Source: Eledone cirrhosa
Taxonomy: Eukaryota
Reading direction: 5' to 3'
NCBI GenBank assembly: GCA_964016885.1
Contig: OZ024740.1
Coordinates: 81,840,001 to 81,904,000 of the forward strand
DNA: 64,000 nt
Part shown: positions 3,277 through 60,565 of the stretch, piece after piece
How positions within the stretch are numbered: the first letter of the stretch is position 1
Layout: each line of letters begins with the position of its first letter
Made by a program: the position numbers and the translations under genes
Notes under the pieces: generated by a model
What the model was told of the DNA's origin: nothing
Database searches by the model: none
Seen by the model: only the letters and a program-made list of their open reading frames with translations

Positions 3277-4258
<982 letters not shown>

Positions 4259-4463
4259 ATACTTGGGGAGGGTCCTATTTGTGTAATATTGTCAGAATTA
4301 ATAACAGAACACACTCACTGCTTGGTTGGTTTTCGCTTCTCGCTGTCTTTTATATCTGTAATCTAACTTACTCGGTCCTCAATGTTGCCATTGACTGACC
4401 GACGGTCAAAAATAATACAGATACAATATAGACACAAACACATATATATAGTTTAAATAATTT

Positions 4464-4504
4464 ACATAAATCTTTCGTTGCACATCTGCAACATCGTCAG
4501 TGGT
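4464..4504 (-). ncRNA. minimal hammerhead in the PLE 3' region (degenerate)
   Basis: Minus strand: CCA-CTGACGA-T-GTTGCA-GATG-TGCAAC-GAAA-GATTTA-TG. Same strand as the ORF, ~270 nt past the stop; stems I and III are weak. Confidence 0.65.
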
Positions 4505-4770
4505 GTTATATTCATTGTTCCTCCTGTTGTGTTGTATGTCTACGCAATTTTTTATTCAGTCTGTCTATATATTTATTTATTTATTTGCTTGTTTGTTTAT
4601 TTTATTTATTTTGTCTTCTTTGCGCATGCGATTGCGTGTGTGTATAGTGTTATGTTTGCTGTGTGACTAGTGTGTATAGTGTTATGTTTGCTGGGTGAAT
4701 AGTGTGTGTTTATGTGCTTGTTGTTATTGTGCTTGTGTATGTATTTATTTATCTTATGTTATTTACTTAT

Positions 4771-6762
4771 TTATACTTCTCTTAGGTCAGTGTTGTTTGT
4801 TTGGGTGTTGTTGTTACTCCACTCATTCTTTCTGTTTAGCTTTGGTCTTCTAATTTCTATTTCACTGGCCTCTTTGATTTGCCTATCTGCTGGGTCATTT
4901 CTATGTTTAGATATTATTCTAATTTCTATGTTGTCTATGTTACCGTCATGTTGTTGTCTAGCATGTTCGTATAGTACACCCCCGTTTTTTCGTCCTTTTA
5001 GTTCCCCCCAGTGTTGGTCTATCCTTTCACCTATGCTACGAGCTGTCTCACCTATGTATGTTGTTGTCATGTTTCTGCAAGTACCCTCTGTACATCTTAT
5101 GCTATAGAATACGTTTCTAGTTTTACAGTTTATCCGGGGGATCACCTTACATATGATACATTTCCTATTGGTACAGTGGGTTTTCTTAAAAGGGTAGGTT
5201 TTGCTGATCAGGGATTTTATGGTGGTTCCTGGCTTCTCTACCATCTTTATTTTTAAGTGGGTCTTTCTCAGGGCCTTTCTACACTGGTTAGCTAATTTCC
5301 CTCCAGGGGTGGCGTCCACAAACATAACACTCTGGTATCTCTGGTTGTCGTACCATGATGTGGCTTTCCCTATCTTATGTCTAGCCCTATCTAAGCTATT
5401 CCATGATTTGCTCCTGTATAATGGGCAAATTCCTTTCATGTCCAGTTCTATGAGGGTATTATACTTTTCCATGGCTCCTTCGTATACTCTGACTCTGTCT
5501 CTTTTGTTGTAGCCTGAGAACTGCATGCGGTTGATGAAGTGTTGGATGTGTCTTTCCATTTCTGTTGGGTCGCACATGCTGGACACATTCTTCATCACTC
5601 GTACCAAATCTGCGATCAGAATATTAAACTTAGCACTACTGGACATTGCTGAGTTTTTGAGTATCAGGTATTTGGAGGCCATGGGTTTAGCATAGTGTGA
5701 GTGGAGAATTTGGGCTCTCTCGTCTATAGTGTTAATCCAGAGTTCTGTGTCTAATACAGGTAGTCTATTGTTAGGGTGTTTGGAAGGGAAGTCTATAGTT
5801 ACAGTTATACTCTGGTGTATGGAATTAGCTATCTGCTGGATGCTTTCCATCGTGCTACGTTCTAAATCAAACTTGTTAGTGCTCTCTAGTGGGGGTGTTC
5901 TTATAACTATATTGATATCGTCTACATAACGAGAGTACATGATGAGGTCTATGGAGCTTTCATTAAGGAGATCTTTAAGTCTCCTTTCCCACCATACCAT
6001 GAAAAGGTTGGCAACATCACCAGCTATGCTGACGCCGATGGCTGCTCCCTCATTTTGGGTGTAGATTTTCTCATTGAACTTAAATATGCGGCCCTTTAGG
6101 GTAGTTTTGATACTAGCCCCTATTGCATGTGCGACCATTTTTCTTACCTGATCATTGTTTGGGGGGGTCCGTATAGCTTTGGTCCACCCAATCCACCTTC
6201 CCATGGGAGTCTTTTTTGCCATTGAGGTTATGGTGGTGTGTCTACCTCTTATAGGTCTACTAGGGCAGAAACATCTAAGGTCATGGCTGTCTAGGTAGTC
6301 AGTGTCGTAGGTAAGTCTAAGTAGGAGGCCCAGTTCGTCTGTGTCGACGTTGCAGAACTCCACCTCACTCTCAATGATCATCTCCACACATCTTTTCACA
6401 GCAAAATCAATGTTAATGGATGGGTACAGTGACACCACATCCATGCTGCCTATTATGCAGTTTGATAGGCTCCTGTTTTTGTGGCACTCACTGATTCTGC
6501 TGAGGAGGTCCTCTGTACTGTCACATACATCTGGGGACATCTTGATTATGGGGCGTATAACCATTGAGAGGAAGTAGGAGATCCTGTAGTTGCTAGCTAT
6601 ATTAGCTCCGCATACGGGTCTTGTTGGTGGTCCTGTTGTCGGGTTTTCGACTGTCTTGTGGTCTTTGCGGAGCCCATAAAAGGGTGGTATGCCATTGTTA
6701 GACGCCAGGAAGTTGTTGGCCGTGCGTCTGCTTGGCTTTAGGATGTCAGTCCACATCATCAT
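4771..6762 (-). CDS. PLE reverse transcriptase + GIY-YIG endonuclease (663 aa, N-terminally truncated)
   Basis: RT motifs FYGLRKDHK, RPVC, MDVVSLYPSI, GAAIG, RYVDD and LPVLD; Cys-rich linker CTNRKCIIC..C; nuclease motif VFYSIRC..YIGETARS..R...H and IKEA..RPKLN. Confidence 0.93.
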   Translation of the reverse strand: MMMWTDILKPSRRTANNFLASNNGIPPFYGLRKDHKTVENPTTGPPTRPVCGANIASNYRISYFLSMVIRPIIKMSPDVCDSTEDLLSRISECHKNRSLSNCIIGSMDVVSLYPSINIDFAVKRCVEMIIESEVEFCNVDTDELGLLLRLTYDTDYLDSHDLRCFCPSRPIRGRHTTITSMAKKTPMGRWIGWTKAIRTPPNNDQVRKMVAHAIGASIKTTLKGRIFKFNEKIYTQNEGAAIGVSIAGDVANLFMVWWERRLKDLLNESSIDLIMYSRYVDDINIVIRTPPLESTNKFDLERSTMESIQQIANSIHQSITVTIDFPSKHPNNRLPVLDTELWINTIDERAQILHSHYAKPMASKYLILKNSAMSSSAKFNILIADLVRVMKNVSSMCDPTEMERHIQHFINRMQFSGYNKRDRVRVYEGAMEKYNTLIELDMKGICPLYRSKSWNSLDRARHKIGKATSWYDNQRYQSVMFVDATPGGKLANQCRKALRKTHLKIKMVEKPGTTIKSLISKTYPFKKTHCTNRKCIICKVIPRINCKTRNVFYSIRCTEGTCRNMTTTYIGETARSIGERIDQHWGELKGRKNGGVLYEHARQQHDGNIDNIEIRIISKHRNDPADRQIKEASEIEIRRPKLNRKNEWSNNNTQTNNTDLREV

Positions 6763-6817
6763 GTGAGCGTTGAGGATTTTTTGTCTCCCATCGTGTGTTT
6801 GTTGTGCAACTTCTCTC

Positions 6818-6871
<54 letters not shown>

Positions 6872-6878
<7 letters not shown>

Positions 6879-7891
6879 CAAATAACGAAACGAAATTAAA
6901 TTTCGTTTCGTTTGCAAGTCACTTTTGTATGACTGACGCTTAAACAATTAAGTTAAAAATCTACATCCACATATGTATACTGAAATACTAGTATGCATAT
7001 GATTACACACACGTATACATATGTAGATGTACCGAGTTTTTCACTGGTCACTTTACTGTGAGTGTCCAGCTATTCTGTATGTAAACACACAGACAAACCG
7101 GTTTTTAGAGTCATACTGGTTTTTGAGGAAACACCTTTCCTCTATTCTCCAGAAAGCCAGACAAGGAATATTGAACTAGTTTCGATGTTGTTACATCTCA
7201 TCAGCAATATTTACCTATCTTCCGGCCTCTCTAGAGAATCGTAAAAGCACATATCGTTATATGCTTTTTCTATGAAAATTAGTAGTGGGCAGACTAATTT
7301 GCATAGAGCGTGAGTAGTACCGGTTCAACGGAGACGATAAAAACAAATAACGAAACGAAATTAAATTTCGTTTCGTTTGCAACTCACTTTTGTATCACTG
7401 ACGCATAAACAAGTTAAGTTAAAAATGTACATCCACATATGTATACTGAAATACTAGTATGCATATGATTACACACACGTATACATATGTAGATGTACCG
7501 AGTTTTTCACTGGTCACTTTACTGTGAGTGTCCAGCTATTCTGTATGTAAACACACAGACAAACCGGTTTTTAGAGTCATACTGGTTTTTGAGGAAACAC
7601 CTTTCCTCTATTCTCCAGAAAGCCAGACAAGGAATATTGAACTAGTTTCGATGTTGTTACATCTCATCAGCAATATTTACCTATCTTCTGGCCTCTCTAG
7701 AGAATCGTAAAAGCACATATCGTTATATGCTTTTTCTATGAAAATTAGTAGTGGGCAGACTAATTTGCATAGAGCGTGAGTACGTACCGGTTCAACGGAG
7801 ACGATAAAAACAAATAACGAAACGAAATTAAATTTCGTTTCGTTTGCAACTCACTTTTGTATGACTGACGCTTAAACAATTAAGTTAAAAA
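6872..7891 (-). repeat. inverted block of ~2.2 monomers of the 466-bp unit (hammerheads at 7167-7211 and 7633-7677)
   Basis: Reverse complement of the main array. It starts at the (TA)n tract and flips orientation at the A-run 7887-7892. Confidence 0.95.
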
Positions 7892-8173
7892 ACCAGTATG
7901 ACTCTAAAAACCGGTTTGTCTGTGTGTTTACATACAGAATAGCTGGACACTCACAGTAAAGTGACCAGTGAAAAACTCGGTACATCTACATATGTATACG
8001 TGTGTGTAATCATATGCATACTAGTATTTCAGTATACATATGTGGATGTACATTTTTAACTTGATTGTTTAAGCGTCAGTCATACAAAAGTGAGTTGCAA
8101 ACGAAACGAAATTTAATTTCGTTTCGTTATTTGTTTTTATCGTCTCCGTTGAACCGGTACGTACTCACGCTCT

Positions 8174-8221
8174 ATGCAAATTAGTCTGCCCACTACTAAT
8201 TTTCATAGAAAAAGCATATAA
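8174..8221 (+). promoter_or_regulatory. possible octamer + TATA module (in every unit); alternatively RNA hairpins
   Basis: ATGCAAAT at 8174-8181, TAATTTTCATA at 8197-8207 and TATAA at 8217-8221. The same motifs and spacing occur at 3784-3831. Confidence 0.3.
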
Positions 8222-8238
8222 CGATATGTGCTTTTACG

Positions 8239-8337
8239 ATTCTCTAGAGAGGCCGGAAGATAGGTAAATATTGCTGATGAGATGTAACAACATCGAAACT
8301 AGTTCAATATTCCTTGTCTGGCTTTCTTCTGGAGAAT
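8239..8337 (+). ncRNA. type I hammerhead ribozyme (first + strand copy, representative of 70)
   Basis: Stem I AATATTG (8267-8273)/CAATATT (8305-8311); CTGATGA 8274-8280; stem II GATG-TAACAA-CATC; GAAA 8295-8298; palindromic ACTAGT; GUU triplet with predicted cut after 8304. Stem I extends through AGG/CCT, AGGCCGGA/TCTGGCTT and ATTCTCTAGA/TCTGGAGAAT. Confidence 0.93.
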
Positions 8338-11300
8338 AGAGGAAAGGTGTTTCCTCAAAAACCAGTATGACTCTAAAAACCGGTTTGTCTGTGTGTTTAC
8401 ATACAGAATAGCTGGACACTCACAGTAAAGTGACCAGTGAAAAACTCGGTACATCTACATATGTATACGTGTGTGTAATCATATGCATACTAGTATTTCA
8501 GTATACATATGTGGATGTACATTTTTAACTTAATTGTTTAAGCGTCAGTCATACAAAAGTGAGTTGCAAACGAAACGAAATTTAATTTCGTTTCGTTATT
8601 TGTTTTTATCGTCTCCGTTGAACCGGTACGTACTCACGCTCTATGCAAATTAGTCTGCCCACTACTAATTTTCATAGAAAAAGCATATAACGATATGTGC
8701 TTTTACGATTCTCTAGAGAGGCCGGAAGATAGGTAAATATTGCTGATGAGATGTAACAACATCGAAACTAGTTCAATATTCCTTGTCTGGCTTTCTTCTG
8801 GAGAATAGAGGAAAGGTGGTTCCTCAAAAACCAGTATGACTCTAAAAACCGGTTTGTCTGTGTGTTTACATACAGAATAGCTGGACACTCACAGTAAAGT
8901 GACCAGTGAAAAACTCGGTACATCTACATATGTATACGTGTGTGTAATCATATGCATACTAGTATTTCAGTATACATATGTGGATGTACATTTTTAACTT
9001 AATTGTTTAAGCGTCAGTCATACAAAAGTGAGTTGCAAACGAAACGAAATTTAATTTCGTTTCGTTATTTGTTTTTATCGTCTCCGTTGAACCGGTACGT
9101 ACTCACGCTCTATGCAAATTAGTCTGCCAACTACTAATTTTCATAGAAAAAGCATATAACGATATGTGCTTTTACGATTCTCTAGAGAGGCCGGAAGATA
9201 GGTAAATATTGCTGATGAGATGTAACAACATCGAAACTAGTTCAATATTCCTCGTCTGGCTTTCTGTAGAATAGAGGAAAGGTGTTTCCTCAAAAACCAG
9301 TATGAATCTAAAAACCGGTTTGTCTGTGTGTTTACATACAGAATAACTGGACACTCACAGTAAAGTGACCAGTGAAAAACTCGGTACATCTACATATGTA
9401 TACGTGTGTGTATTCATATGCATACTAGTATTTCAGTATACATATGTGGATGTACATTTTTAACTTAATTGTTTAAGCGTCAGTCATACAAAAGTGAGTT
9501 GCAAACGAAACGAAATTTAATTTCGTTTCGTTATTTGTTTTTATCGTCTCCGTTGAACCGGTACGTACTCACGCTCTATGCAAATTAGTCTGCCCACTAC
9601 TAATTTTCATAGAAAAAGCATATAACGATATGTGCTTTTACGATTCTCTAAAGAGGCCGGAAGATAGGTAAATATTGCTGATGAGATGTAACAACATCGA
9701 AACTATTTCAATATTCCTTGTCTGGCTTTCTGTAAAATAGAGGAAAGCTGTTTCCTCAAAAACCATTATGACTCTAAAAACCGGTTTGTCTGTGTGTTTA
9801 CATACAGAATAGCTGGACACTCACAGTAAAGTGACCAGTGAAAAACTCGGTACATCTACATATGTATACGTGTGTGTAATCATATGCATACTAGTATTTC
9901 AGTATACATATGTGGATGTACATTTTTAACTTAATTGTTTAAGCGTCAGTCATACAAAAGTGAGTTGCAAACGAAACGAAATTTAATTTCGTTTCGTTAT
10001 TTGTTTTTATCGTCTCCGTTGAACCGGTACGTACTCCCGCTCTATGCAAATTAGTCTGCCCACTACTAATTTTCATAGAAAAAGCATATAACGATATGTG
10101 CTTTTACGATTCTCTAGAGAGGCCGGAAGATAGGTAAATATTGCTGATGAGATGTAACAACATCGAAACTAGTTCCATATTCCTTGTCTGGCCTTCTTCT
10201 GGAGAATAGAGGAAAGGTGTTTCCTCAAAAACCAGTATGACTCTAAAAACCGGTTTGTCTGTGTGTTTACATACAGAATAGCTGGACACTCACAGTAAAG
10301 TGACCAGTGAAAAACTCGGTACATCTACATATGTATACGTGTGTGTAATCATATGCATACTAGTATTTCAGTATACATATGTGGATGTACATTTTTAACT
10401 TAATTGTTTAAGCGTCAGTCATACAAAAGTGAGTTGCAAACGAAACGAAATTTAATTTCGTTTCGTTATTTGTTTTTATCGTCTCCGTTGAACCGGTACG
10501 TACTCACGCTCTATGCAAATTAGTCTGCCCACTACTAATTTTCATAGAAAAAGCATATAACGATATGTGCTTTTACGATTCTCTAGAGAGGCCGGAAGAT
10601 AGGTAAATATTGCTGATGAGATGTAACAACATCGAAACTAGTTCAATATTCCTTGTCTGGCTTTCTGGAGAATAGAGGAAAGGTGTTTCCTCAAAAACCA
10701 GTATGACTCTAAAAACCGGTTTGTCTGTGTGTTTACATACAGAATAGCTGGACACTCACAGTAAAGTGACCAGTGAAAAACTCGGTACATCTACATATGT
10801 ATACGTGTGTGTAATCATATGCATACTAGTATTTCAGTATACATATGTGGATGTACATTTTTAACTTAATTGTTTAAGCGTCAGTCATACAAAAGTGAGT
10901 TGCAAACGAAACGAAATTTAATTTCGTTTCGTTATTTGTTTTTATCGTCTCCGTTGAACCGGTACGTACTCACGCTCTATGCAAATTAGTCTGCCCACTA
11001 CTAATTTTCATAGAAAAAGCATATAACGATATGTGCTTTTACGATTCTCTAGAGAGGCCGGAAGATAGGTAAATATTGCTGATGAGATGTAAAAACATCG
11101 AAACTAGTTCAATATTCCTTGTCTGGCTTTCTGTAGAATAGAGGAACGGTGTTTCCTCAAAAACCAGTATGACTCTAAAAACCGGTTTGTCTGTGTGTTT
11201 ACATACAGAATAGCTGGACACTCACAGTAAAGTGACCAGTGAAAAACTCGGTACATCTACATATGTATACGTGTGTGTAATCATATGCATACTAGTATTT

Positions 11301-14300
11301 CAGTATACATATGTGGATGTACATTTTTAACTTAATTGTTTAAGCGTCAGTCATACAAAAGTGAGTTGCAAACGAAACGAAATTTAATTTCGTTTCGTTA
11401 TTTGATTTTATCGTCTCCGTTGAACCGGTACGTACTCACGCTCTATGCAAATTAGTCTGCCCACTACTAATTTTCATAGAAAAAGCATATAACGATATGT
11501 GCTTTTACGATTCTCTAGAGAGGCCGGAAGATAGGTAAATATTGCTGATGAGATGTAACAACATCGAAACTAGTTCAATATTCCTTGTCTGGCTTTCTTC
11601 TGGAGAATAGAGGAAAGGTGTTTCCTCAAAAACCAGTATGACTCTAAAAACCGGTTTGTCTGTGTGTTTACATACAGAATAGCTGGACACTCACAGTAAA
11701 GTGACCAGTGAAAAACTCGGTACATCTACATATGTATACGTGTGTGTAATCATATGCATACTAGTATTTCAGTATACATATGTGGATGTACATTTTTAAC
11801 TTAATTGTTTAAGCGTCAGTCATACAAAAGTGAGTTGCAAACGAAACGAAATTTAATTTCGTTTCGTTATTTGTTTTTATCGTCTCCGTTGAACCGGTAC
11901 GTACTCACGCTCTGTGCAAATTAGTCTGCCCACTACTAATTTTCATAGAAAAAGCATATAACGATATGTGCTTTTACGATTCTCTAGAGAGGCCGGAAGA
12001 TAGGTAAATATTGCTGATGAGATGTAACAACATCGAAACTAGTTCAATATTCCTTGTCTGGCTTTCTTCTGGAGAATAGAGGAAAGGTGTTTCCTCAAAA
12101 ACCAGTATGACTCTAAAAACCGGTTTGTCTGTGTGTTTACATACAGAATAGCTGGACACTCACAGTAAAGTGACCAGTGAAAAACTCGGTACATCTACAT
12201 ATGTATACGTGTGTGTAATCATATGCATACTAGTATTTCAGTATACATATGTGGATGTACATTTTTAACTTAATTGTTTAAGCGTCAGTCATACAAAAGT
12301 GAGTTGCAAACGAAACGAAATTTAATTTCGTTTCGTTATTTGTTTTTATCGTCTCCGTTGAACCGGTACGTACTCACGCTCTATGCAAATTAGTCTGCCC
12401 ACTACTAATTTTCATAGAAAAAGCATATAACGATATGTGCTTTTACGATTCTCTAGAGAGGCCGGAAGATAGGTAAATATTGCTGATGAGATGTAACAAC
12501 ATCGAAACTAGTTCAATATTCCTTGTCTGGCTTTCTGTATAATAGAGGAAAGGTGTTTCCTCAAAAACCAGTATGACTCTAAAAACCGGTTTGTCTGTGT
12601 GTTTACATACAGAATAACTGGACACTCACAGTAAAGTGACCAGTGAAAAACTCGGTACATCTACATATGTATACGTGTGTGTAATCATATGCATACTAGT
12701 ATTTCAGTATACATATGTGGATGTACATTTTTAACTTAATTGTTTAAGCGTCAGTCATACAAAAGTGAGTTGCAAACGAAACGAAATTTAATTTCGTTTC
12801 GTTATTTGTTTTTATCGTCTCCGTTGAACCGGTACGTACTCACGCTCTATGCAAATTAGTCTGCCCACTACTAATTTTCATAGAAAAAGCATATAACGAT
12901 ATGTGCTTTTACGATTCTCTAGAGAGGCCGGAAGATAGGTAAATATTGCTGATGAGATGCAACAACATCGAAACTAGTTCAATATTCCTTGTCTGGCTTT
13001 CTGTAGAATAGAGGAAAGGTGTTTCCTCAAAAACCAGTATGACTCTAAAAACCGGTTTGTCTGTGTGTTTACATACAGAATAGCTGGACACTCACAGTAA
13101 AGTGACCAGTGAAAAACTCGGTACATCTACATATGTATACGTGTGTGTAATCATATGCATACTAGTATTTCAGTATACATATGTGGATGTACATTTTTAA
13201 CTTAATTGTTTAAGCGTCAGTCATACAAAAGTGAGTTGCAAACGAAACGAAATTTAATTTCGTTTCGTTATTTGTTTTTATCGTCTCCGTTGAACCGGTA
13301 CGTACTCACGCTCTATGCAAATTAGTCTGCCCACTACTAATTTTCATAGAAAAAGCATATAACGATATGTGCTTTTACGATTCTCTAGAGAGGCCGGAAG
13401 ATAGGTAAATATTGCTGATGAGATGTAACAACATCGAAACTAGTTCAATATTCCTTGTCTGGCTTTCTGGAGAATAGAGGAAAGGTGTTTCCTAAAAAAC
13501 CAGTATGACTCTAAAAACCGGTTTGTCTGTGTGTTTACATACAGAATAGCTGGACACTCACAGTAAAGTGACCAGTGAAAAACTCGGTACATCTACATAT
13601 GTATACGTGTGTGTAATCATATGCATACTAGTATTTCAGTATATATATGTGGATGTACATTTTTAACTTAATTGTTTAAGCGTCAGTCATACAAAAGTGA
13701 GTTGCAAACGAAACGAAATTTAATTTCGTTTCGTTATTTGTTTTTATCGTCTCCGTTGAACCGGTACGTACTCACGCTCTATGCAAATTAGTCTGCCCAC
13801 TACTAATTTTCATAGAAAAAGCATATAACGATATGTGCTTTTACGATTCTCTAGAGAGGCCGGAAGATAGGTAAATATTGCTGATGAGATGTAAAAACAT
13901 CGAAACTAGTTCAATATTCCTTGTCTGGCTTTCTGTAGAATAGAGGAAAGGTGTTTCCTCAAAAACCAGTATGACTCTAAAAACCGGTTTGTCTGTGTGT
14001 TTACATACAGAATAGCTGGACACTCACAGTAAAGTGACCAGTGAAAAACTCGGTACATCTACATATGTATACGTGTGTGTAATCATATGCATACTAGTAT
14101 TTCAGTATACATATGTGGATGTACATTTTTAACTTAATTGTTTAAGCGTCAGTCATACAAAAGTGAGTTGGAAACGAAACGAAATTCAATTTCGTTTCGT
14201 TATTTGTTTTTATCGTCTCCGTTGAACCGGTACGTACTCACGCTCTATGCAAATTAGTCTGCCCACTACTAATTTTCATAGAAAAAGCATATAACGATAT

Positions 14301-17300
14301 GTGCTTTTACGATTCTCTAAAGAGGCCGGAAGATAGGTAAATATTGCTGATGAGATGTAACAACATCGAAACTAGTTCAATATTCCTTGTCTGGCTTTCT
14401 TCTGGAGAATAGAGGAAAGGTGTTTCCTCAAAAACCAGTATGACTCTAAAAACCGGTTTGTCTGTGTGTTTACATACAGAATAGCTGGACACTCACAGTA
14501 AAGTGACCAGTGAAAAACTCGGTACATCTACATATGTATACGTGTGTGTAATCATATGCATACTAGTATTTCAGTATACATATGTGGATGTACATTTTTA
14601 ACTTAATTGTTTAAGCGTCAGTCATACAAAAGTGAGTTGCAAACGAAACGAAATTTAATTTCGTTTCGTTATTTGTTTTTATCGTCTCCGTTGAACCGGT
14701 ACGTACTCACGCTCTATGCAAATTAGTCTGCCCACTACTAATTTTCATAGAAAAAGCATATAACGATATGTGCTTTTACGATTCTCTAGAGAGGCCGGAA
14801 GATAGGTAAATATTGCTGATGAGATGTTACAACATCGAAACTAGTTCAATATTCCTTGTCTGGCTTCTGGAGAATAGAGGAAAGGTGTTTCCTCAAAAAC
14901 CAGTATGACTCTAAAAACCGGTTTGTCTGTGTGTTTACATACAGAATAGCTGGACACTCACAGTAAAGTGACCAGTGAAAAACTCGGTACATCTACATAT
15001 GTATACGTGTGTGTAATCATATGCATACTAGTATTTCAGTATACATATGTGGATGTACATTTTTAACTTAATTGTTTAAGCGTCAGTCATACAAAAGTGA
15101 GTTGCAAACGAAACGAAATTTAATTTCGTTTCGTTATTTGTTTTTATCGTCTCCGTTGAACCGGTACCTACTCACGCTCTATGCAAATTAGTCTGCCCAC
15201 TACTAATTTTCATAGAAAAAGCATATAACGATATGTGCTTTTACGATTCTCTAGAGAGGCCGGAAGATAGGTAAATATTGCTGATGAGATGTAACAACAT
15301 CGAAACTAGTTCAATATTCCTTGTCTGGCTTTCTGGAGAATAGAGGAAAGGTGTTTCCTCAAAAACCAGTATGACTCTAAAAACCGGTTTGTCTGTGTGT
15401 TTACATACAGAATAGCTGGACACTCACAGTAAAGTGACCAGTGAAAAACTCGGTACATCTACATATGTATACGTGTGTGTAATCATATGCATACTAGTAT
15501 TTCAGTATACATATGTGGATGTACATTTTTAACTTAATTGTTTAAGCGTCAGTCATACAAAAGTGAGTTGCAAACGAAACGAAATTTAATTTCGTTTCGT
15601 TATTTGTTTTTATCGTCTCCGTTGAACCGGTACGTACTCACGCTCTATGCAAATTAGTCTGCCCACTACTAATTTTCATAGAAAAAGCATATAACGATAT
15701 GTGCTTTTAAGATTCTCTAGAGAGGCCGGAAGATAGGTAAATATTGCTGATGAGATGTAACAACATCGAAACTAGTTCAATATTCCTTGTCTGGCTTTCT
15801 GGAGAATAGAGGAAAGGTGTTTCCTAAAAAACCAGTATGACTCTAAAAACCGGTTTGTCTGTGTGTTTACATACAGAATAGCTGGACACTCACAGTAAAG
15901 TGACCAGTGAAAAACTCGGTACATCTACATATGTATACGTGTGTGTAATCATATGCATACTAGTATTTCAGTATACATATGTGGATGTACATTTTTAACT
16001 TAATTGTTTAAGCGTCAGTCATACAAAAGTGAGTTGCAAACGAAATGAAATTTAATTTCGTTTCGTTATTTGTTTTTATCGTCTCCGTTGAACCGGTACG
16101 TACTCACGCTCTATGCAAATTAGTCTGCCCACTACTAATTTTCATAGAAAAAGCATATAACGATATGTGCTTTTACGATTCTCTAGAGAGGCCGGAAGAT
16201 AGGTAAATACTGCTGATGAGATGTAACAACATCGAAACTAGTTCAATATTCCTTGTCTGGCTTTCTGGAGAATAGAGGAAAGGTGTTTCCTCAAAAACCA
16301 GTATGACTCTAAAAACCGGTTTGTCTGTGTGTTTACATACATAATAGCTGGACACTCACAGTAAAGTGACCAGTGAAAAACTCGGTACATCTACATATGT
16401 ATACGTGTGTGTAATCATATGCATACTAGTATTTCAGTATACATATGTGGATGTACATTTTTAACTTAATTGTTTAAGCGTCAGTCATACAAAAGTGAGT
16501 TGCAAACGAAACGAAATTTAATTTCGTTTCGTTATTTGTTTTTATCGTCTCCGTTGAACCGGTACGTACTCACGCTCTATGCAAATTAGTCTGCCCACTA
16601 CTAATTTTCATAGAAAAAGCATATAACGATATGTGCTTTTACGATTCTCTAGAGAGGCCGGAAGATAGGTAAATATTGCTGATGAGATGTAACAACATCG
16701 AAACTAGTTCAATATTCCTTGTCTGGCTTTCTGGAGAATAGAGGAAAGGTGTTTCCTCAAAAACCAGTATGACTCTAAAAACCGGTTTGTCTGTGTGTTT
16801 ACATACAGAATAGCTGGACACTCACAGTAAAGTGACCAGTGAAAAACTCGGTACATCTACATATGTATACGTGTGTGTAATCATATGCATACTAGTATTT
16901 CAGTATACATATGTGGATGTACATTTTTAACTTAATTGTTTAAGCGTCAGTCATACAAAAGTGAGTTGCAAACGAAACGAAATTTAATTTCGTTTCGTTA
17001 TTTGTTTTTATCGTCTCCGTTGAACCGGTACGTACTCACGCTCTATGCAAATTAGTCTGCCCACTACTAATTTTCATAGAAAAAGCATATAACGATATGT
17101 GCTTTTACGATTCTCTAGAGAGGCCGGAAGATAGGTAAATATTGCTGATGAGATGTAACAACATCGAAACTAGTTCAATATTCCTTGTCTGGCTTTCTGG
17201 AGAATAGAGGAAAGGTGTTTCCTCAAAAACCAGTATGACTCTAAAAACCGGTTTGTCTGTGTTTACATACAGAATAGCTGGAGACTCACAGTAAAGTGAC

Positions 17301-20300
17301 CAGTGAAAAACTCGGTACATCTACATATGTATACGTGTGTGTAATCATATGCATACTAGTATTTCAGTATACATATGTGGATGTACATTTTTAACTTAAT
17401 TGTTTAAGCGTCAGTCATACAAAAGTGAGTTGCAAACGAAACGAAATTTAATTTCATTTCGTTATTTGTTTTTATCGTCTCCGTTGAACCGGTACGTACT
17501 CACGCTCTATGCAAATTAGTCTGCCCACTACTAATTTTCATAGAAAAAGCATATAACGATATGTGCTTTTACGATTCTCTAGAGAGGCCGGAAGATAGGT
17601 AAATAATGCTGATGAGATGTTACAACATCGAAACTAGTTCAATATTCCTTGTCTGGCTTTCTGGAGAATAGAGGAAAGGTGTTTCCTCAAAAACCAGTAT
17701 GACTCTAAAAACCGGTTTGTCTGTGTGTTTACATACATAATAGCTGGACACTCACAGTAAAGTGACCAGTGAAAAACTCGGTACATCTACATATGTATAC
17801 GTGTGTGTAATCATATGCATACTAGTATTTCAGTATACATATGTGGATGTACATTTTTAACTTAATTGTTTAAGCGTCAGTCATACAAAAGTGAGTTGCA
17901 AACGAAACGAAATTTAATTTCGTTTCGTTATTTGTTTTTATCGTCTCCGTTGAACCGGTACGTACTCACGCTCTATGCAAATTAGTCTGCCCACTACTAA
18001 TTTTCATAGAAAAAGCATATAACGATATGTGCTTTTACGATTCTCTAGAGAGGCCGGAAGATAGGTAAATATTGCTGATGAGATGTAACAACATCGAAAC
18101 TAGTTCAATATTCCTTGTCTGGCTTTCTGGAGAATAGAGGAAAGGTGTTTCCTCAAAAACCAGTATGACTCTAAAAACCGGTTTGTCTGTGTGTTTACAT
18201 ACAGAATAGCTGGACACTCACAGTAAAGTGACCAGTGAAAAACTCGGTACATCTACATATGTATACGTGTGTGTAATCATATGCATACTAGTATTTCAGT
18301 ATACATATGTGGATGTACATTTTTAACTTAATTGTTTAAGCGTCAGTCATACAAAAGTGAGTTGCAAACGAAACGAAATTTAATTTCGTTTCGTTATTTG
18401 TTTTTATCGTCTCCGTTGAACCGGTACGTACTCACGCTCTATGCAAATTAGTCTGCCCACTACTAATTTTCATAGAAAAAGCATATAACGATATGTGCTT
18501 TTACGATTCTCTAGAGAGGCCGGAAGATAGGTAAATATTGCTGATGAGATGTAACAACATCGAAACTAGTTCAATATTCCTTGTCTGGCTTTCTGGAGAA
18601 TAGAGGAAAGGTGTTTCCTCAAAAACCAGTATGACTCTAAAAACCGGTTTGTCTGTGTTTACATACAGAATATCTGGACACTCACAGTAAAGTGACCAGT
18701 GAAAATCTCGGTACATCTACATATGTATACGTGTGTGTAATCATATGCATACTAGTATTTCAGTATACATATGTGGATGTACATTTTTAACTTAATTGTT
18801 TAAGCGTCAGTCATACAAAAGTGAGTTGCAAACGAAACGAAATTTAATTTCGTTTCGTTATTTGTTTTTATCGTCTCCGTTGAACCGGTACGTACTCACG
18901 CTCTATGCAAATTAGTCTGCCCACTACTAATTTTCATAGAAAAAGCATATAACGATATGTGCTTTTACGATTCTCTAGAGAGGCCGGAAGATAGGTAAAT
19001 ATTGCTGATGAGATGTAACAACATCGAAACTAGTTCAATATTCCTTGTCTGGCTTTCTGGAGAATAGAGGAAAGGTGTTTCCTCAAAAACCAGTATGACT
19101 CTAAAAACCGGTTTGTCTGTGTGTTTACATACAGAATAGCTGGACACTCACAGTAAAGTGACCAGTGAAAAACTCGGTACATCTACATATGTATACGTGT
19201 GTGTAATCATATGCATACTAGTATTTCAGTATACATATGTGGATGTACATTTTTAACTTAATTGTTTAAGCGTCAGTCATACAAAAGTGAGTTGCAAACG
19301 AAACGAAATTTAATTTCGTTTCGTTATTTGTTTTTATCGTCTCCGTTGAACCGGTACGTACTCACGCTCTATGCAAATTAGTCTGCCCACTACTAATTTT
19401 CATAGAAAAAGCATATAACGATATGTGCTTTTACGATTCTCTAGAGAGGCCGGAAGATAGGTAAATATTGCTGATGAGATGTAACAACATCGAAACTAGT
19501 TCAATATTCCTTGTCTGGCTTTCTGGAGAATAGAGGAAAGGTGTTTCCTCAAAAACCAGTATGACTCTAAAAACCGGTTTGTCTGTGTGTTTACATACAG
19601 AATAGCTGGACACTCACAGTAAAGTGACCAGTGAAAAACTCGGTACATCTACATATGTATACGTGTGTGTAATCATATGCATACTAGTATTTCAGTATAC
19701 ATATGTGGATGTACATTTTTAACTTAATTGTTTAAGCGTCAGTCATACAAAAGTGAGTTGCAAACGAAACGAAATTTAATTTCGTTTCGTTATTTGTTTT
19801 TATCGTCTCCGTTGAACCGGTACGTACTCACGCTCTATGCAAATTAGTCTGCCCACTACTAATTTTCATAGAAAAAGCATATAACGATATGTGCTTTTAC
19901 AATTCTCTAGAGAGGCCGGAAGATAGGTAAATATTGCTGATGAGATGTTACAACATCGAAACTAGTTCAATATTCCTTGTCTGGCTTCTGGAGAATAGAG
20001 GAAAGGTGTTTCCTCAAAAACCAGTATGACTCTAAAAACCGGTTTGTCTGTGTGTTTACATACAGAATAGCTGGACACTCACAGTAAAGTGACCAGTGAA
20101 AAACTCGGTACATCTACATATGTATACGTGTGTGTAATCATATGCATACTAGTATTTCAGTATACATATGTGGATGTACATTTTTAACTTAATTGTTTAA
20201 GCGTCAGTCATACAAAAGTGAGTTGCAAACGAAACGAAATTTAATTTCGTTTCGTTATTTGTTTTTATCGTCTCCGTTGAACCGGTACGTACTCACGCTC

Positions 20301-23300
20301 TATGCAAATTAGTCTGCCCACTACTAATTTTCATAGAAAAAGCATATAACGATATGTGCTTTTACGATTCTCTAGAGAGGCCGGAAGATAGGTAAATATT
20401 GCTGATGAGATGTAACAACATCGAAACTAGTTCAATATTCCTTGTCTGGCTTTCTGGAGAATAGAGGAAAGGTGTTTCCTCAAAAACCAGTATGACTCTA
20501 AAAACCGGTTTGTCTGTGTTTACATACAGAATAGCTGGAGACTCACAGTAAAGTGACCAGTGAAAAACTCGGTACATCTACATATGTATACGTGTGTGTA
20601 ATCATATGCATACTAGTATTTCAGTATACATATGTGGATGTACATTTTTAACTTAATTGTTTAAGCGTCAGTCATACAAAAGTGAGTTGCAAACGAAACG
20701 AAATTTAATTTCGTTTCGTTATTTGTTTTTATCGTCTCCGTTGAACCGGTACGTACTCACGCTCTATGCAAATTAGTCTGCCCACTACTAATTTTCATAG
20801 AAAAAGCATATAACGATATGTGCTTTTACGATTCTCTAGAGAGGCCGGAAGATAGGTAAATAATGCTGATGAGATGTTACAACATCGAAACTAGTTCAAT
20901 ATTCCTTGTCTGGCTTTCTGGAGAATAGAGGAAAGGTGTTTCCTCAAAAACCAGTATGACTCTAAAAACCGGTTTGTCTGTGTGTTTACATACATAATAG
21001 CTGGACACTCACAGTAAAGTGACCAGTGAAAAACTCGGTACATCTACATATGTATACGTGTGTGTAATCATATGCATACTAGTATTTCAGTATACATATG
21101 TGGATGTACATTTTTAACTTAATTGTTTAAGCGTCAGTCATACAAAAGTGAGTTGCAAACGAAACGAAATTTAATTTCGTTTCGTTATTTGTTTTTATCG
21201 TCTCCGTTGAACCGGTACGTACTCACGCTCTATGCAAATTAGTCTGCCCACTACTAATTTTCATAGAAAAAGCATATAACGATATGTGCTTTTACGATTC
21301 TCTAGAGAGGCAGGAAGATAGGTAAATATTGCTGATGAGATGTAACAACATCGAAACTAGTTCAATATTCCTTGTCTGGCTTTCTGGAGAATAGAGGAAA
21401 GGTGTTTCCTCAAAAACCAGTATGACTCTAAAAACCGGTTTGTCTGTGTGTTTACATACAGAATAGCTGGACACTCACAGTAAAGTGACCAGTGAAAAAC
21501 TCGGTACATCTACATATGTATACGTGTGTGTAATCATATGCATACTAGTATTTCAGTATACATATGTGGATGTACATTTTTAACTTAATTGTTTAAGCGT
21601 CAGTCATACAAAAGTGAGTTGCAAACGAAACGAAATTTAATTTCGTTTCGTTATTTGTTTTTATCGTCTCCGTTGAACCGGTACGTACTCACGCTCTATG
21701 CAAATTAGTCTGCCCACTACTAATTTTCATAGAAAAAGCATATAACGATATGTGCTTTTACGATTCTCTAGAGAGGCCGGAAGATAGGTAAATATTGCTG
21801 ATGAGATGTAACAACATCGAAACTAGTTCAATATTCCTTGTCTGGCTTTCTGGAGAATAGAGGAAAGGTGTTTCCTCAAAAACCAGTATGACTCTAAAAA
21901 CCGGTTTGTCTGTGTGTTTACATACAGAATAGCTGGACACTCACAGTAAAGTGACCAGTGAAAAACTCGGTACATCTACATATGTATACGTGTGTGTAAT
22001 CATATGCATACTAGTATTTCAGTATACATATGTGGATGTACATTTTTAACTTAATTGTTTAAGCGTCAGTCATACAAAAGTGAGTTGCAAACGAAACGAA
22101 ATTTAATTTCGTTTCGTTATTTGTTTTTATCGTCTCCGTTGAACCGGTACGTACTCACGCTCTATGCAAATTAGTCTGCCCACTACTAATTTTCATAGAA
22201 AAAGCATATAACGATATGTGCTTTTACGATTCTCTAGAGAGGCCGGAAGATAGGTAAATATTGCTGATGAGATGTAACAACATCGAAACTAGTTCAATAT
22301 TCCTTGTCTGGCTTTCTGGAGAATAGAGGAAAGGTGTTTCCTCAAAAACCAGTATGACTCTAAAAACCGGTTTGTCTGTGTTTACATACAGAATATCTGG
22401 ACACTCACAGTAAAGTGACCAGTGAAAATCTCGGTACATCTACATATGTATACGTGTGTGTAATCATATGCATACTAGTATTTCAGTATACATATGTGGA
22501 TGTACATTTTTAACTTAATTGTTTAAGCGTCAGTCATACAAAAGTGAGTTGCAAACGAAACGAAATTTAATTTCGTTTCGTTATTTGTTTTTATCGTCTC
22601 CGTTGAACCGGTACGTACTCACGCTCTATGCAAATTAGTCTGCCCACTACTAATTTTCATAGAAAAAGCATATAACGATATGTGCTTTTACGATTCTCTA
22701 GAGAGGCCGGAAGATAGGTAAATATTGCTGATGAGATGTAACAACATCGAAACTAGTTCAATATTCCTTGTCTGGCTTTCTGGAGAATAGAGGAAAGGTG
22801 TTTCCTCAAAAACCAGTATGACTCTAAAAACCGGTTTGTCTGTGTGTTTACATACAGAATAGCTGGACACTCACAGTAAAGTGACCAGTGAAAAACTCGG
22901 TACATCTACATATGTATACGTGTGTGTAATCATATGCATACTAGTATTTCAGTATACATATGTGGATGTACATTTTTAACTTAATTGTTTAAGCGTCAGT
23001 CATACAAAAGTGAGTTGCAAACGAAACGAAATTTAATTTCGTTTCGTTATTTGTTTTTATCGTCTCCGTTGAACCGGTACGTACTCACGCTCTATGCAAA
23101 TTAGTCTGCCCACTACTAATTTTCATAGAAAAAGCATATAACGATATGTGCTTTTACGATTCTCTAGAGAGGCCGGAAGATAGGTAAATATTGCTGATGA
23201 GATGTAACAACATCGAAACTAGTTCAATATTCCTTGTCTGGCTTTCTGGAGAATAGAGGAAAGGTGTTTCCTCAAAAACCAGTATGACTCTAAAAACCGG

Positions 23301-26300
23301 TTTGTCTGTGTGTTTACATACAGAATAGCTGGACACTCACAGTAAAGTGACCAGTGAAAAACTCGGTACATCTACATATGTATACGTGTGTGTAATCATA
23401 TGCATACTAGTATTTCAGTATACATATGTGGATGTACATTTTTAACTTAATTGTTTAAGCGTCAGTCATACAAAAGTGAGTTGCAAACGAAACGAAATTT
23501 AATTTCGTTTCGTTATTTGTTTTTATCGTCTCCGTTGAACCGGTACGTACTCACGCTCTATGCAAATTAGTCTGCCCACTACTAATTTTCATAGAAAAAG
23601 CATATAACGATATGTGCTTTTACGATTCTCTAGAGAGGCCGGAAGATAGGTAAATATTGCTGATGAGATGTTACAACATCGAAACTAGTTCAATATTCCT
23701 TGTCTGGCTTCTGGAGAATAGAGGAAAGGTGTTTCCTCAAAAACCAGTATGACTCTAAAAACCGGTTTGTCTGTGTGTTTACATACAGAATAGCTGGACA
23801 CTCACAGTAAAGTGACCAGTGAAAAACTCGGTACATCTACATATGTATACGTGTGTGTAATCATATGCATACTAGTATTTCAGTATACATATGTGGATGT
23901 ACATTTTTAACTTAATTGTTTAAGCGTCAGTCATACAAAAGTGAGTTGCAAACGAAACGAAATTTAATTTCGTTTCGTTATTTGTTTTTATCGTCTCCGT
24001 TGAACCGGTACCTACTCACGCTCTATGCAAATTAGTCTGCCCACTACTAATTTTCATAGAAAAAGCATATAACGATATGTGCTTTTACGATTCTCTAGAG
24101 AGGCCGGAAGATAGGTAAATATTGCTGATGAGATGTAACAACATCGAAACTAGTTCAATATTCCTTGTCTGGCTTTCTGGAGAATAGAGGAAAGGTGTTT
24201 CCTCAAAAACCAGTATGACTCTAAAAACCGGTTTGTCTGTGTGTTTACATACAGAATAGCTGGACACTCACAGTAAAGTGACCAGTGAAAAACTCGGTAC
24301 ATCTACATATGTATACGTGTGTGTAATCATATGCATACTAGTATTTCAGTATACATATGTGGATGTACATTTTTAACTTAATTGTTTAAGCGTCAGTCAT
24401 ACAAAAGTGAGTTGCAAACGAAACGAAATTTAATTTCGTTTCGTTATTTGTTTTTATCGTCTCCGTTGAACCGGTACGTACTCACGCTCTATGCAAATTA
24501 GTCTGCCCACTACTAATTTTCATAGAAAAAGCATATAACGATATGTGCTTTTACGATTCTCTAGAGAGGCCGGAAGATAGGTAAATATTGCTGATGAGAT
24601 GTAACAACATCGAAACTAGTTCAATATTCCTTGTCTGGCTTTCTGGAGAATAGAGGAAAGGTGTTTCCTCAAAAACCAGTATGACTCTAAAAACCGGTTT
24701 GTCTGTGTTTACATACAGAATAGCTGGAGACTCACAGTAAAGTGACCAGTGAAAAACTCGGTACATCTACATATGTATACGTGTGTGTAATCATATGCAT
24801 ACTAGTATTTCAGTATACATATGTGGATGTACATTTTTAACTTAATTGTTTAAGCGTCAGTCATACAAAAGTGAGTTGCAAACGAAACGAAATTTAATTT
24901 CGTTTCGTTATTTGTTTTTATCGTCTCCGTTGAACCGGTACGTACTCACGCTCTATGCAAATTAGTCTGCCCACTACTAATTTTCATAGAAAAAGCATAT
25001 AACGATATGTGCTTTTACGATTCTCTAGAGAGGCCGGAAGATAGGTAAATAATGCTGATGAGATGTTACAACATCGAAACTAGTTCAATATTCCTTGTCT
25101 GGCTTTCTGGAGAATAGAGGAAAGGTGTTTCCTCAAAAACCAGTATGACTCTAAAAACCGGTTTGTCTGTGTGTTTACATACAGAATAGCTGGACACTCA
25201 CAGTAAAGTGACCAGTGAAAAACTCGGTACATCTACATATGTATACGTGTGTGTAATCATATGCATACTAGTATTTCAGTATACATATGTGGATGTACAT
25301 TTTTAACTTAATTGTTTAAGCGTCAGTCATACAAAAGTGAGTTGCAAACGAAACGAAATTTAATTTCGTTTCGTTATTTGTTTTTATCGTCTCCGTTGAA
25401 CCGGTACGTACTCACGCTCTATGCAAATTAGTCTGCCCACTACTAATTTTCATAGAAAAAGCATATAACGATATGTGCTTTTACGATTCTCTAGAGAGGC
25501 CGGAAGATAGGTAAATATTGCTGATGAGATGTTACAACATCGAAACTAGTTCAATATTCCTTGTCTGGCTTCTGGAGAATAGAGGAAAGGTGTTTCCTCA
25601 AAAACCAGTATGACTCTAAAAACCGGTTTGTCTGTGTGTTTACATACAGAATAGCTGGACACTCACAGTAAAGTGACCAGTGAAAAACTCGGTACATCTA
25701 CATATGTATACGTGTGTGTAATCATATGCATACTAGTATTTCAGTATACATATGTGGATGTACATTTTTAACTTAATTGTTTAAGCGTCAGTCATACAAA
25801 AGTGAGTTGCAAACGAAACGAAATTTAATTTCGTTTCGTTATTTGTTTTTATCGTCTCCGTTGAACCGGTACCTACTCACGCTCTATGCAAATTAGTCTG
25901 CCCACTACTAATTTTCATAGAAAAAGCATATAACGATATGTGCTTTTACGATTCTCTAGAGAGGCCGGAAGATAGGTAAATATTGCTGATGAGATGTAAC
26001 AACATCGAAACTAGTTCAATATTCCTTGTCTGGCTTTCTGGAGAATAGAGGAAAGGTGTTTCCTCAAAAACCAGTATGACTCTAAAAACCGGTTTGTCTG
26101 TGTGTTTACATACAGAATAGCTGGACACTCACAGTAAAGTGACCAGTGAAAAACTCGGTACATCTACATATGTATACGTGTGTGTAATCATATGCATACT
26201 AGTATTTCAGTATACATATGTGGATGTACATTTTTAACTTAATTGTTTAAGCGTCAGTCATACAAAAGTGAGTTGCAAACGAAACGAAATTTAATTTCGT

Positions 26301-29300
26301 TTCGTTATTTGTTTTTATCGTCTCCGTTGAACCGGTACGTACTCACGCTCTATGCAAATTAGTCTGCCCACTACTAATTTTCATAGAAAAAGCATATAAC
26401 GATATGTGCTTTTACGATTCTCTAGAGAGGCCGGAAGATAGGTAAATATTGCTGATGAGATGTAACAACATCGAAACTAGTTCAATATTCCTTGTCTGGC
26501 TTTCTGGAGAATAGAGGAAAGGTGTTTCCTCAAAAACCAGTATGACTCTAAAAACCGGTTTGTCTGTGTTTACATACAGAATAGCTGGAGACTCACAGTA
26601 AAGTGACCAGTGAAAAACTCGGTACATCTACATATGTATACGTGTGTGTAATCATATGCATACTAGTATTTCAGTATACATATGTGGATGTACATTTTTA
26701 ACTTAATTGTTTAAGCGTCAGTCATACAAAAGTGAGTTGCAAACGAAACGAAATTTAATTTCGTTTCGTTATTTGTTTTTATCGTCTCCGTTGAACCGGT
26801 ACGTACTCACGCTCTATGCAAATTAGTCTGCCCACTACTAATTTTCATAGAAAAAGCATATAACGATATGTGCTTTTACGATTCTCTAGAGAGGCCGGAA
26901 GATAGGTAAATAATGCTGATGAGATGTTACAACATCGAAACTAGTTCAATATTCCTTGTCTGGCTTTCTGGAGAATAGAGGAAAGGTGTTTCCTCAAAAA
27001 CCAGTATGACTCTAAAAACCGGTTTGTCTGTGTGTTTACATACATAATAGCTGGACACTCACAGTAAAGTGACCAGTGAAAAACTCGGTACATCTACATA
27101 TGTATACGTGTGTGTAATCATATGCATACTAGTATTTCAGTATACATATGTGGATGTACATTTTTAACTTAATTGTTTAAGCGTCAGTCATACAAAAGTG
27201 AGTTGCAAACGAAACGAAATTTAATTTCGTTTCGTTATTTGTTTTTATCGTCTCCGTTGAACCGGTACGTACTCACGCTCTATGCAAATTAGTCTGCCCA
27301 CTACTAATTTTCATAGAAAAAGCATATAACGATATGTGCTTTTACGATTCTCTAGAGAGGCCGGAAGATAGGTAAATATTGCTGATGAGATGTAACAACA
27401 TCGAAACTAGTTCAATATTCCTTGTCTGGCTTTCTGGAGAATAGAGGAAAGGTGTTTCCTCAAAAACCAGTATGACTCTAAAAACCGGTTTGTCTGTGTG
27501 TTTACATACAGAATAGCTGGACACTCACAGTAAAGTGACCAGTGAAAAACTCGGTACATCTACATATGTATACGTGTGTGTAATCATATGCATACTAGTA
27601 TTTCAGTATACATATGTGGATGTACATTTTTAACTTAATTGTTTAAGCGTCAGTCATACAAAAGTGAGTTGCAAACGAAACGAAATTTAATTTCGTTTCG
27701 TTATTTGTTTTTATCGTCTCCGTTGAACCGGTACGTACTCACGCTCTATGCAAATTAGTCTGCCCACTACTAATTTTCATAGAAAAAGCATATAACGATA
27801 TGTGCTTTTACGATTCTCTAGAGAGGCCGGAAGATAGGTAAATATTGCTGATGAGATGTAACAACATCGAAACTAGTTCAATATTCCTTGTCTGGCTTTC
27901 TGGAGAATAGAGGAAAGGTGTTTCCTCAAAAACCAGTATGACTCTAAAAACCGGTTTGTCTGTGTGTTTACATACAGAATAGCTGGACACTCACAGTAAA
28001 GTGACCAGTGAAAAACTCGGTACATCTACATATGTATACGTGTGTGTAATCATATGCATACTAGTATTTCAGTATACATATGTGGATGTACATTTTTAAC
28101 TTAATTGTTTAAGCGTCAGTCATACAAAAGTGAGTTGCAAACGAAACGAAATTTAATTTCGTTTCGTTATTTGTTTTTATCGTCTCCGTTGAACCGGTAC
28201 GTACTCACGCTCTATGCAAATTAGTCTGCCCACTACTAATTTTCATAGAAAAAGCATATAACGATATGTGCTTTTACGATTCTCTAGAGAGGCCGGAAGA
28301 TAGGTAAATATTGCTGATGAGATGTAACAACATCGAAACTAGTTCAATATTCCTTGTCTGGCTTTCTGGAGAATAGAGGAAAGGTGTTTCCTCAAAAACC
28401 AGTATGACTCTAAAAACCGGTTTGTCTGTGTTTACATACAGAATATCTGGACACTCACAGTAAAGTGACCAGTGAAAATCTCGGTACATCTACATATGTA
28501 TACGTGTGTGTAATCATATGCATACTAGTATTTCAGTATACATATGTGGATGTACATTTTTAACTTAATTGTTTAAGCGTCAGTCATACAAAAGTGAGTT
28601 GCAAACGAAACGAAATTTAATTTCGTTTCGTTATTTGTTTTTATCGTCTCCGTTGAACCGGTACGTACTCACGCTCTATGCAAATTAGTCTGCCCACTAC
28701 TAATTTTCATAGAAAAAGCATATAACGATATGTGCTTTTACGATTCTCTAGAGAGGCCGGAAGATAGGTAAATATTGCTGATGAGATGTAACAACATCGA
28801 AACTAGTTCAATATTCCTTGTCTGGCTTTCTGGAGAATAGAGGAAAGGTGTTTCCTCAAAAACCAGTATGACTCTAAAAACCGGTTTGTCTGTGTGTTTA
28901 CATACAGAATAGCTGGACACTCACAGTAAAGTGACCAGTGAAAAACTCGGTACATCTACATATGTATACGTGTGTGTAATCATATGCATACTAGTATTTC
29001 AGTATACATATGTGGATGTACATTTTTAACTTAATTGTTTAAGCGTCAGTCATACAAAAGTGAGTTGCAAACGAAACGAAATTTAATTTCGTTTCGTTAT
29101 TTGTTTTTATCGTCTCCGTTGAACCGGTACGTACTCACGCTCTATGCAAATTAGTCTGCCCACTACTAATTTTCATAGAAAAAGCATATAACGATATGTG
29201 CTTTTACGATTCTCTAGAGAGGCCGGAAGATAGGTAAATATTGCTGATGAGATGTAACAACATCGAAACTAGTTCAATATTCCTTGTCTGGCTTTCTGTA

Positions 29301-60522: not shown

Positions 60523-60565
60523 GTCAAAGTTCTTTCGTCACACATGCTGTGACCTCTTCAGTGAC
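60523..60565 (-). ncRNA. minimal type I hammerhead
   Basis: Minus strand: GTCA-CTGAAGA-G-GTCACA-GCATG-TGTGAC-GAAA-GAAC-TT-TGAC. Confidence 0.7.

Follow-up and report, generated by a model that had tools for sequence, protein, structure and literature searches.

A type I hammerhead with a palindromic helix III in a tandem retrozyme repeat of Eledone cirrhosa, and the Penelope-type ends of its array

Introduction

Does the hammerhead motif that recurs through a long tandem array in the octopod Eledone cirrhosa depend on pairing between neighbouring copies, and does such pairing account for the array? The motif lies in a 64,000-nt stretch of contig OZ024740.1 (assembly GCA_964016885.1, forward-strand positions 81,840,001 to 81,904,000), here called the window, to which all coordinates refer. 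An original prediction held that neighbouring units could pair through a palindromic ACUAGU so that multimers would cleave while released monomers or circles stay stable, which would give the tandem layout a functional reason.

In most metazoan hammerheads, helices of 6 bp and 4 bp with conserved loop contacts are accompanied by a helix III that is 1-2 bp long and carries a small palindromic loop, and tandem copies can fold as active dimers, which is thought to permit cleavage of multimers but not of monomer circles (Cervera and de la Pena, 2014; PMC4209133). Since that paper, in its accessible part, states the same architecture and gives the dimer-regulation idea nearly verbatim, the pairing proposed for the octopod motif is a published model, and the same helix III palindromes were noted by Perreault et al. 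(2011; PMC3088659). The feature is therefore known in kind: it is an ordinary animal retrozyme hammerhead, and the dimer model is already in print and tested on an analogue. Comparisons with published systems below refer to the accessible parts of the papers cited.

Results

Architecture of the hammerhead

The core CUGANGA, the GAA, the A15.1-U16.1 pair and an NUH triplet were all present in the motif (Table 1), together with a 6-bp helix I, a 4-bp helix II and the tertiary positions (the UA bulge, U1.7 and the last A of loop II). A type I descriptor matched the real unit but none of 20,000 dinucleotide-shuffled sequences. No hammerhead-like family passed for the motif in an Rfam search at the gathering threshold; the top match was Hammerhead_HH9 (36.5 bits, E 2.3e-7), which did not reach the gathering score of 52. 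Because HH9 models a longer helix III, this score lowers the case for membership of HH9 and not the case for a hammerhead. Matches of the unit to Rfam sraA and microRNA families also scored below gathering and were rejected as reflecting AT-rich hairpins.

Table 1. Features of the window (strand "." where none applies).
Feature	Position	Strand	Remark
Type I hammerhead, first forward copy	8263..8313	+	predicted cut after 8304
Distal GG	8263-64	+	
UA bulge	8265-66	+	
A (position 2.7 facing U1.7)	8267	+	
Stem I 5' strand	8268-73	+	6 bp
Core CTGATGA	8274-80	+	
Stem II, 4 bp	8281-84/8291-94	+	
Loop II TAACAA	8285-90	+	6 nt, last base A
GAA	8295-97	+	
ACTAGT palindrome (helix III; A15.1-U16.1 pair + CUAG)	8298..8303	+	intact in 71/72 copies
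T17	8304	+	
Stem I 3' strand	8305-10	+	
T1.7	8311	+	
Distal CC	8312-13	+	
Octamer ATGCAAAT	8174..8181	+	100 nt upstream of core, inside a 49-nt block
Hairpin at unit positions 263-289	8101..8127	+	between array ends 263 and 302
Forward tandem array	7888..40713	+	70.5 units of 464-469 bp, 70 hammerheads
Inverted block, 2.2 units	6872..7891	-	2 hammerheads; sense 3' end at unit position 302, joined to (AT)n
(TA)n tract between inverted block and Penelope-like ORF	6821..6874	.	likely insertion target
Penelope-like ORF	4771..6819	-	682 aa without stop; RT and GIY-YIG-like end, CX4CxxC linker; 5'-truncated
Minimal hammerhead in 3' region of Penelope-like element	4465..4502	-	2-bp stem I, extra base after A9, long stem II
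Diverged relative of whole unit	3578..4134	+	nhmmer E 7.8e-26; between (TA)n tracts
Inverted fragment of relative	3331..3452	-	ends at (AT)n just past equivalent hairpin

These elements identify the motif as a type I hammerhead of the canonical animal form, with the spacing of Schistosoma mansoni. That spacing had been recognized in the original prediction and was borne out by position-for-position agreement with the S. mansoni-derived Sm-alpha scaffold (PMC7118274). Sm-alpha shares the GGUA bulge, the 6-bp stem I, U1.7-CC, the 4-bp stem II and a 6-nt loop ending in A, but has C at position 2.7, the triplet GUC and GC-richer stems where the octopod unit has A at 2.7 and GUU. The combination of this spacing with a palindromic stem III is not unusual: helix III is a 6-nt palindrome in the natural S. 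mansoni entry AF036740 (PMC5666329) as well.

Two details of the motif required redrawing. The 7-nt strand first assigned to stem I is present, but it consists of 6 bp plus position 2.7 facing U1.7. The ACTAGT palindrome is likewise real, but the folding model does not allow the 2-nt loop it was said to close. In that model the A15.1-U16.1 pair had a probability of 0.0, whether the motif was isolated or part of the circle, and forcing the A-U pair of helix III cost ~6 kcal/mol; a single base pair with a CUAG tetraloop is thus the better drawing of helix III. The self-duplex of the 6-mer ACUAGU was scored at -4.8 kcal/mol. As the core pairs dictate four of its six letters, the palindrome by itself is a 1-in-4 event, and only the central UA is informative.

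A census of the 72 copies (70 forward, 2 inverted) found core CTGATGA and stem II intact in every copy and GUU, which the original prediction does not name, as the cleavage triplet throughout. The single copy without ACTAGT (core at 9678) reads ACTATT, and an uncompensated stem I mismatch occurs in eight array copies. Loop II is TAACAA in 58 copies, and the natural loop variants named in the original prediction were all recovered (TTACAA in 10, TAAAAA in 2 and CAACAA in 2). Contigs from four of six listed sequencing runs were also aligned to one unit and gave 21 variant sites along it, none of them within ACTAGT. In runs X4 and X5, individual contigs carry both halves of a compensatory double change in stem II (A-U to U-A at 21806/21817). 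While the array has GUU throughout, GUC alleles exist elsewhere in the retrozyme family, with U17 changed to C at 21828 in 15 contigs of X1 and one of X6. GUU is slower than GUC; the literature searched gave no rate for the one against the other. Contigs of 495-496 letters with joined ends were seen in X5 and X6, and their end-to-start joins fit tandem DNA equally well; neither these contigs nor the depth of X1 was accepted as a sign of expression or of circles.

A 466-bp retrozyme repeat

The unit is a non-coding tandem repeat of a few hundred bp with a GC content below 50% and a type I hammerhead in each copy, and it folds far better than shuffles (z -9.97). In these respects it resembles the metazoan non-LTR retrozymes (Cervera and de la Pena, 2020; PMC7229834), which are short, non-coding, low-GC tandem units with one type I hammerhead each, form arrays of up to dozens of copies, have a highly self-paired RNA and co-occur with Penelope-like elements. 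We therefore classify the 466-bp repeat, by its sequence features, as a non-LTR retrozyme. It differs in being slightly above the 150-450 bp quoted for those retrozymes, in its GUU triplet, and in an (AT)n-joined end and 39-nt tail, which the accessible part of PMC7229834 does not describe. None of the 25 papers listed, of 2,601 matched in a literature search, is on a cephalopod retrozyme, and the accessible part of PMC7229834 shows no cephalopod example, although its supplement may list some.

The forward array begins at unit position 50 and finishes at position 263, and its 69 whole units have a mean of 3.9 differing columns between units. Repeated haplotype runs were frequent (12 repeated runs of three units compared to a shuffle mean of 0.7, with none of 5000 shuffles as high), and private haplotypes were concentrated at the edges (12/14 and 6/6 edge units compared to 5/49 central units). 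Repeated blocks together with divergent edges point to unequal crossing-over, and the length of the array looks like the product of amplification at the DNA level. Rolling-circle copying of the whole array from one circle was rejected as unsupported, as haplotype blocks recur and the two inverted copies are not identical. Between the right end of the array and the next (TA)n tract lie 109 bases (40714-40822) that have no other copy in the window.

A whole-unit relative, diverged in sequence, lies on the far side of the neighbouring Penelope-like element (Table 1). Its hammerhead (3861-3911) retains GGTA, TAACAA, ACTAGT and U1.7-CC, and has a different but paired stem I, the triplet GUA and a decayed core. 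The best-kept non-ribozyme block in this relative is the 49-nt octamer block, at 80% identity; octamer plus TAATTTTCATA stand at 8174-8221 and at 3783-3831, and a hairpin then follows in both subfamilies. The octamer is intact in 69 forward copies. The promoter of newt satellite 2 includes an octamer. We infer that the octopod octamer is a candidate promoter element of snRNA type, the type that newt satellite 2 is reported to use (PMC2220036). Sm-alpha has a Pol III promoter (PMC2220036), whereas the octopod unit carries two T5 runs on its sense strand. The octamer was discarded as a general trait of the hammerhead class: in the metagenome survey described below, an exact octamer within 250 nt upstream on the same strand was found at 1 of 25 loci, several of which have short flanks.

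Insertion ends and the neighbouring Penelope-like element

At unit position 302 (window 6872) the inverted block gives way to (AT)n. In an independent run, X1, 12 contigs pass from the unit into (AT)n at this position (loose ends at 21664), and two further contigs join (AT)n at unit position 228. The forward array ends at position 263 (window 40713), 39 nt before 302 and across the hairpin, and is not joined to (AT)n. Ends of retrotransposition type therefore occur at dispersed insertions, with the 302/(AT)n junction shared by the window and the 12 X1 contigs and the relative ending at the equivalent place.

Penelope insertions carry an inverted 5'-truncated copy on the 5' side and a tail of 30-40 bp on one end (10.1101/2021.04.23.441226), and the Penelope tail lies between two internal start sites of reverse transcription near a stem-loop (Frangieh et al., 2024; PMC11167929). 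The two octopod ends, 39 nt apart, and the inverted 5'-truncated copy match this pattern of tail and inverted copy, and we identify the array ends as bearing a Penelope-type insertion signature. With Penelope-like insertions the locus also shares (TA)n or AT-rich targets (10.1101/2021.04.23.441226) and, if the comparison holds, reverse transcription that starts inside the RNA at a stem-loop (PMC11167929). The hairpin at 263-289 is, by this analogy, a candidate start signal for reverse transcription. Unlike Penelope-like elements, the unit is non-coding, has a canonical and not a minimal hammerhead, and does not resemble the 3' region of its neighbour in sequence. The internal end was rejected as proof of a circular template because in vitro the Penelope RT uses mainly uncut RNA as its template and begins at internal sites on it (PMC11167929).

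The neighbouring ORF has the marks of a Neptune/Nematis element, namely an RT followed by GIY-YIG with a CX2-5CxxC linker (Craig et al., 2021; 10.1101/2021.04.23.441226). The RT matched Pfam RVT_1 below the cut-off (E 1.1e-4), the best named match was an Octopus vulgaris protein (67%), and the ORF is 5'-truncated relative to a 1045-aa relative. As RT, GIY-YIG-like end, linker, terminal-region hammerhead and (TA)n flanks were all found at or beside 4771-6819, we assign the neighbour to the Neptune/Nematis type of Penelope-like elements, the clade being given by motif only. BLAST of the unit against the 3' region of this element gave no meaningful match, and derivation of the unit from the terminal region of the element was accordingly rejected.

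Several further features were observed in the window. The stretch 3250-6874 holds nested insertions parted by (TA)n: the inverted fragment, the diverged retrozyme, the Penelope-like element and the main array. A degenerate second Penelope-like element on the minus strand (42010-43583), recognized by eye from RT and GIY-YIG-like pieces and without a Pfam match, contains a minimal hammerhead with its core from 42049 on. Another minimal hammerhead-like motif lies on the minus strand at ~60520-60567 (core at 60561, 4-bp stem I, long stem II). A tRNA-Ser(GGA)-like sequence on the plus strand (60019-60092) is possibly the head of a tRNA-derived SINE. Broken frames at 54440-54984 resemble, by eye only, the RT region of a non-LTR retrotransposon.

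The helix III palindrome across the class

Metagenome contigs were scanned for hammerheads of identical spacing with the central dinucleotide left free, resulting in 45 loci with 31 distinct motifs, of which 25 with at least 5/6 stem I pairs and 4/4 stem II pairs were retained and six dropped. The middle dinucleotide was self-complementary in 21 of these 25 motifs (GC 12, CG 6, AT 2, TA 1), one further motif was palindromic only by wobble and three were not palindromic. Compared to the 25% expected, this is a strong enrichment (p 1e-9), and after clustering at 80% identity 7-8 of 11 clusters were palindromic (p 0.008-0.001). The excess over expectation suggests that the palindrome has been selected across hammerheads of this spacing, and the metagenome count gives a simple number for selection on it. 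When 17 of these 25 motifs were aligned with the two from the window, the middle pair showed 10 double changes and three failures in 19 rows; stems I and II of the same alignment had been pre-filtered for pairing and are no independent test. The distal pairs were not a filter and form fully in 23 of the 25 motifs, while the triplet GUU and an A at position 2.7 each occur in 3 of the 25. Viral contigs gave no match to the same pattern. The metagenome contigs of L036/L037, L040/L041 and L043/L044 each bear one hammerhead of this build twice in identical form (648 bp apart in L040/L041), with the triplet GUU in L036, and these are probably retrozymes or Penelope repeats of other eukaryotes.

Folding of single and paired copies

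The double hammerhead is a nested structure and can hence be scored by nearest-neighbour folding, which omits the core and the tertiary contacts. Its cost above the free ensemble was 3.1, 6.6, 6.7 and 7.2 kcal/mol with leaders of 22, 60, 100 and 150 nt, compared to 8.6-12.2 kcal/mol for a single folded copy with 22-150 nt leaders. With the full upstream unit the double form cost 9.1-10.2 kcal/mol and the single copy 8.6-9.5 kcal/mol. The double form was thus favoured in four of six consensus contexts, those with short leaders, and not in the two with the full upstream unit. When a wild-type copy was paired with the natural ACUAUU copy, the cost went up to 7.6 and 15.1. Stems I and II are predicted to form in the circle with no blocking by other pairing, which makes the weak helix III a plausible brake.

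Discussion

The octopod unit has what characterizes a dimer hammerhead, a helix III of 1-2 bp with a palindromic loop in tandem copies. We consider it probable that strand-swapped pairing of neighbouring copies through ACUAGU makes cleavage more efficient, and that insertion was by a Penelope-like enzyme. The suitability of helix III for dimers, as originally proposed, draws on the palindromes of 21 of the 25 metagenome motifs and on the axolotl analogue; full-flank multimers, on the other hand, were not favoured in folding. The axolotl HHR_Amex1 and newt satellite 2 motifs share with the octopod unit the 1 bp plus palindromic helix III tetraloop and all loop 1/loop 2 contacts (PMC7229834; PMC6155905), while AU-rich stems, a UA centre and GUU set the octopod unit apart. 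With all tertiary contacts, the axolotl motif reaches 6% cleavage within one hour as a monomer and much more as a dimer (PMC7229834). Among Xenopus dimers, eight of nine were without cleavage (10.64898/2026.07.22.740005).

A strict dimer gate is another matter, and the full-flank folding model and the DNA-amplified length both count against one in this array. Released monomers had been thought to owe their stability to such a gate, but in a linear monomer the hammerhead is split between the two ends and is therefore inert without it; only circles are at issue. Nor does gating supply a reason for the tandem layout, as any type I retrozyme needs two tandem hammerheads for release and the haplotype blocks that recur along the 70 copies are typical of amplification at the DNA level.

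It is also conceivable, though rather unlikely, that the hammerhead cuts well alone, its core stabilized by the long stem I and by contacts between loop I and loop II, with the palindrome adding little and the circles shielded by proteins or in some other way. In favour of this, no tertiary position is missing, the pairs of the local stem I form with probabilities of 0.64-0.94 and would need to be given up to build a double hammerhead, and folding with full flanks shows no preference for the double form. Invertebrate monomers cleave efficiently, those of coral and mussel at 0.8 and 0.1 per min with a helix III described as longer, and circles have been argued to be blocked in vivo otherwise than by self-pairing (PMC7229834). 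This reading would not predict the enrichment of all four self-complementary dinucleotides, which strand-swapping does predict and a monomer loop does not, and the monomer of the axolotl motif, which is of the same build, cleaves poorly. A largely silent satellite, left by one old insertion with a weak GUU ribozyme, spread by unequal crossing-over and inheriting its palindrome without using it, is unlikely: the haplotype blocks and edge-bound private haplotypes, the GUU of every copy despite GUC alleles elsewhere in the family, the possible pairing of A2.7 with U1.7 in competition with the tertiary contact and the spread of uncompensated stem I changes to several copies would suit it, but core and stem II are intact in all 72 copies, the octamer persists in 69 forward copies (low divergence making such intactness weak evidence either way), and GUU is a listed cleavable site that occurs in three of the 25 natural motifs.

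Under dimer-favoured cleavage with Penelope-type insertion, the array would be transcribed into multimers, possibly from the octamer block, and stems I and II would form while helix III remains unstable within one copy. Two copies would then swap stem I strands and share a 6-bp helix III, and the two active sites would cut after GUU. The freed 466-nt unit would be closed by ligation into a circle, where cutting by its single hammerhead would be slow. With either a circle or an uncut multimer as template, a Penelope RT/endonuclease would nick (AT)n and begin to copy from within the unit, at 302 or 263, yielding tandem and inverted copies, and unequal crossing-over would then extend the array. 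The complete combination, in which an octamer promoter, a slow dimer-gated GUU hammerhead and hairpin-primed copying of Neptune type at two sites 39 nt apart into (AT)n all belong to one octopod retrozyme, is put forward tentatively and falls somewhat short of probable. If it is true, the slow dimer-gated hammerhead would keep circles and multimers intact as templates.

The hammerhead itself adds little to what is known, and the value of the locus lies in its surroundings and in the signature of its insertion ends. The mobilization of retrozymes has been described as open (PMC7229834; 10.64898/2026.07.22.740005). In this retrozyme family an internal end fixed at (AT)n comes together with a tail as long as those of Penelope insertions, an inverted copy and a neighbour with an unbroken RT-endonuclease frame, which makes an in vitro test of mobility straightforward. 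If the proposed combination is true, the ends would be junction-level evidence that Penelope enzymes move animal retrozymes without a shared terminal sequence, which the papers, in their accessible parts, only propose.
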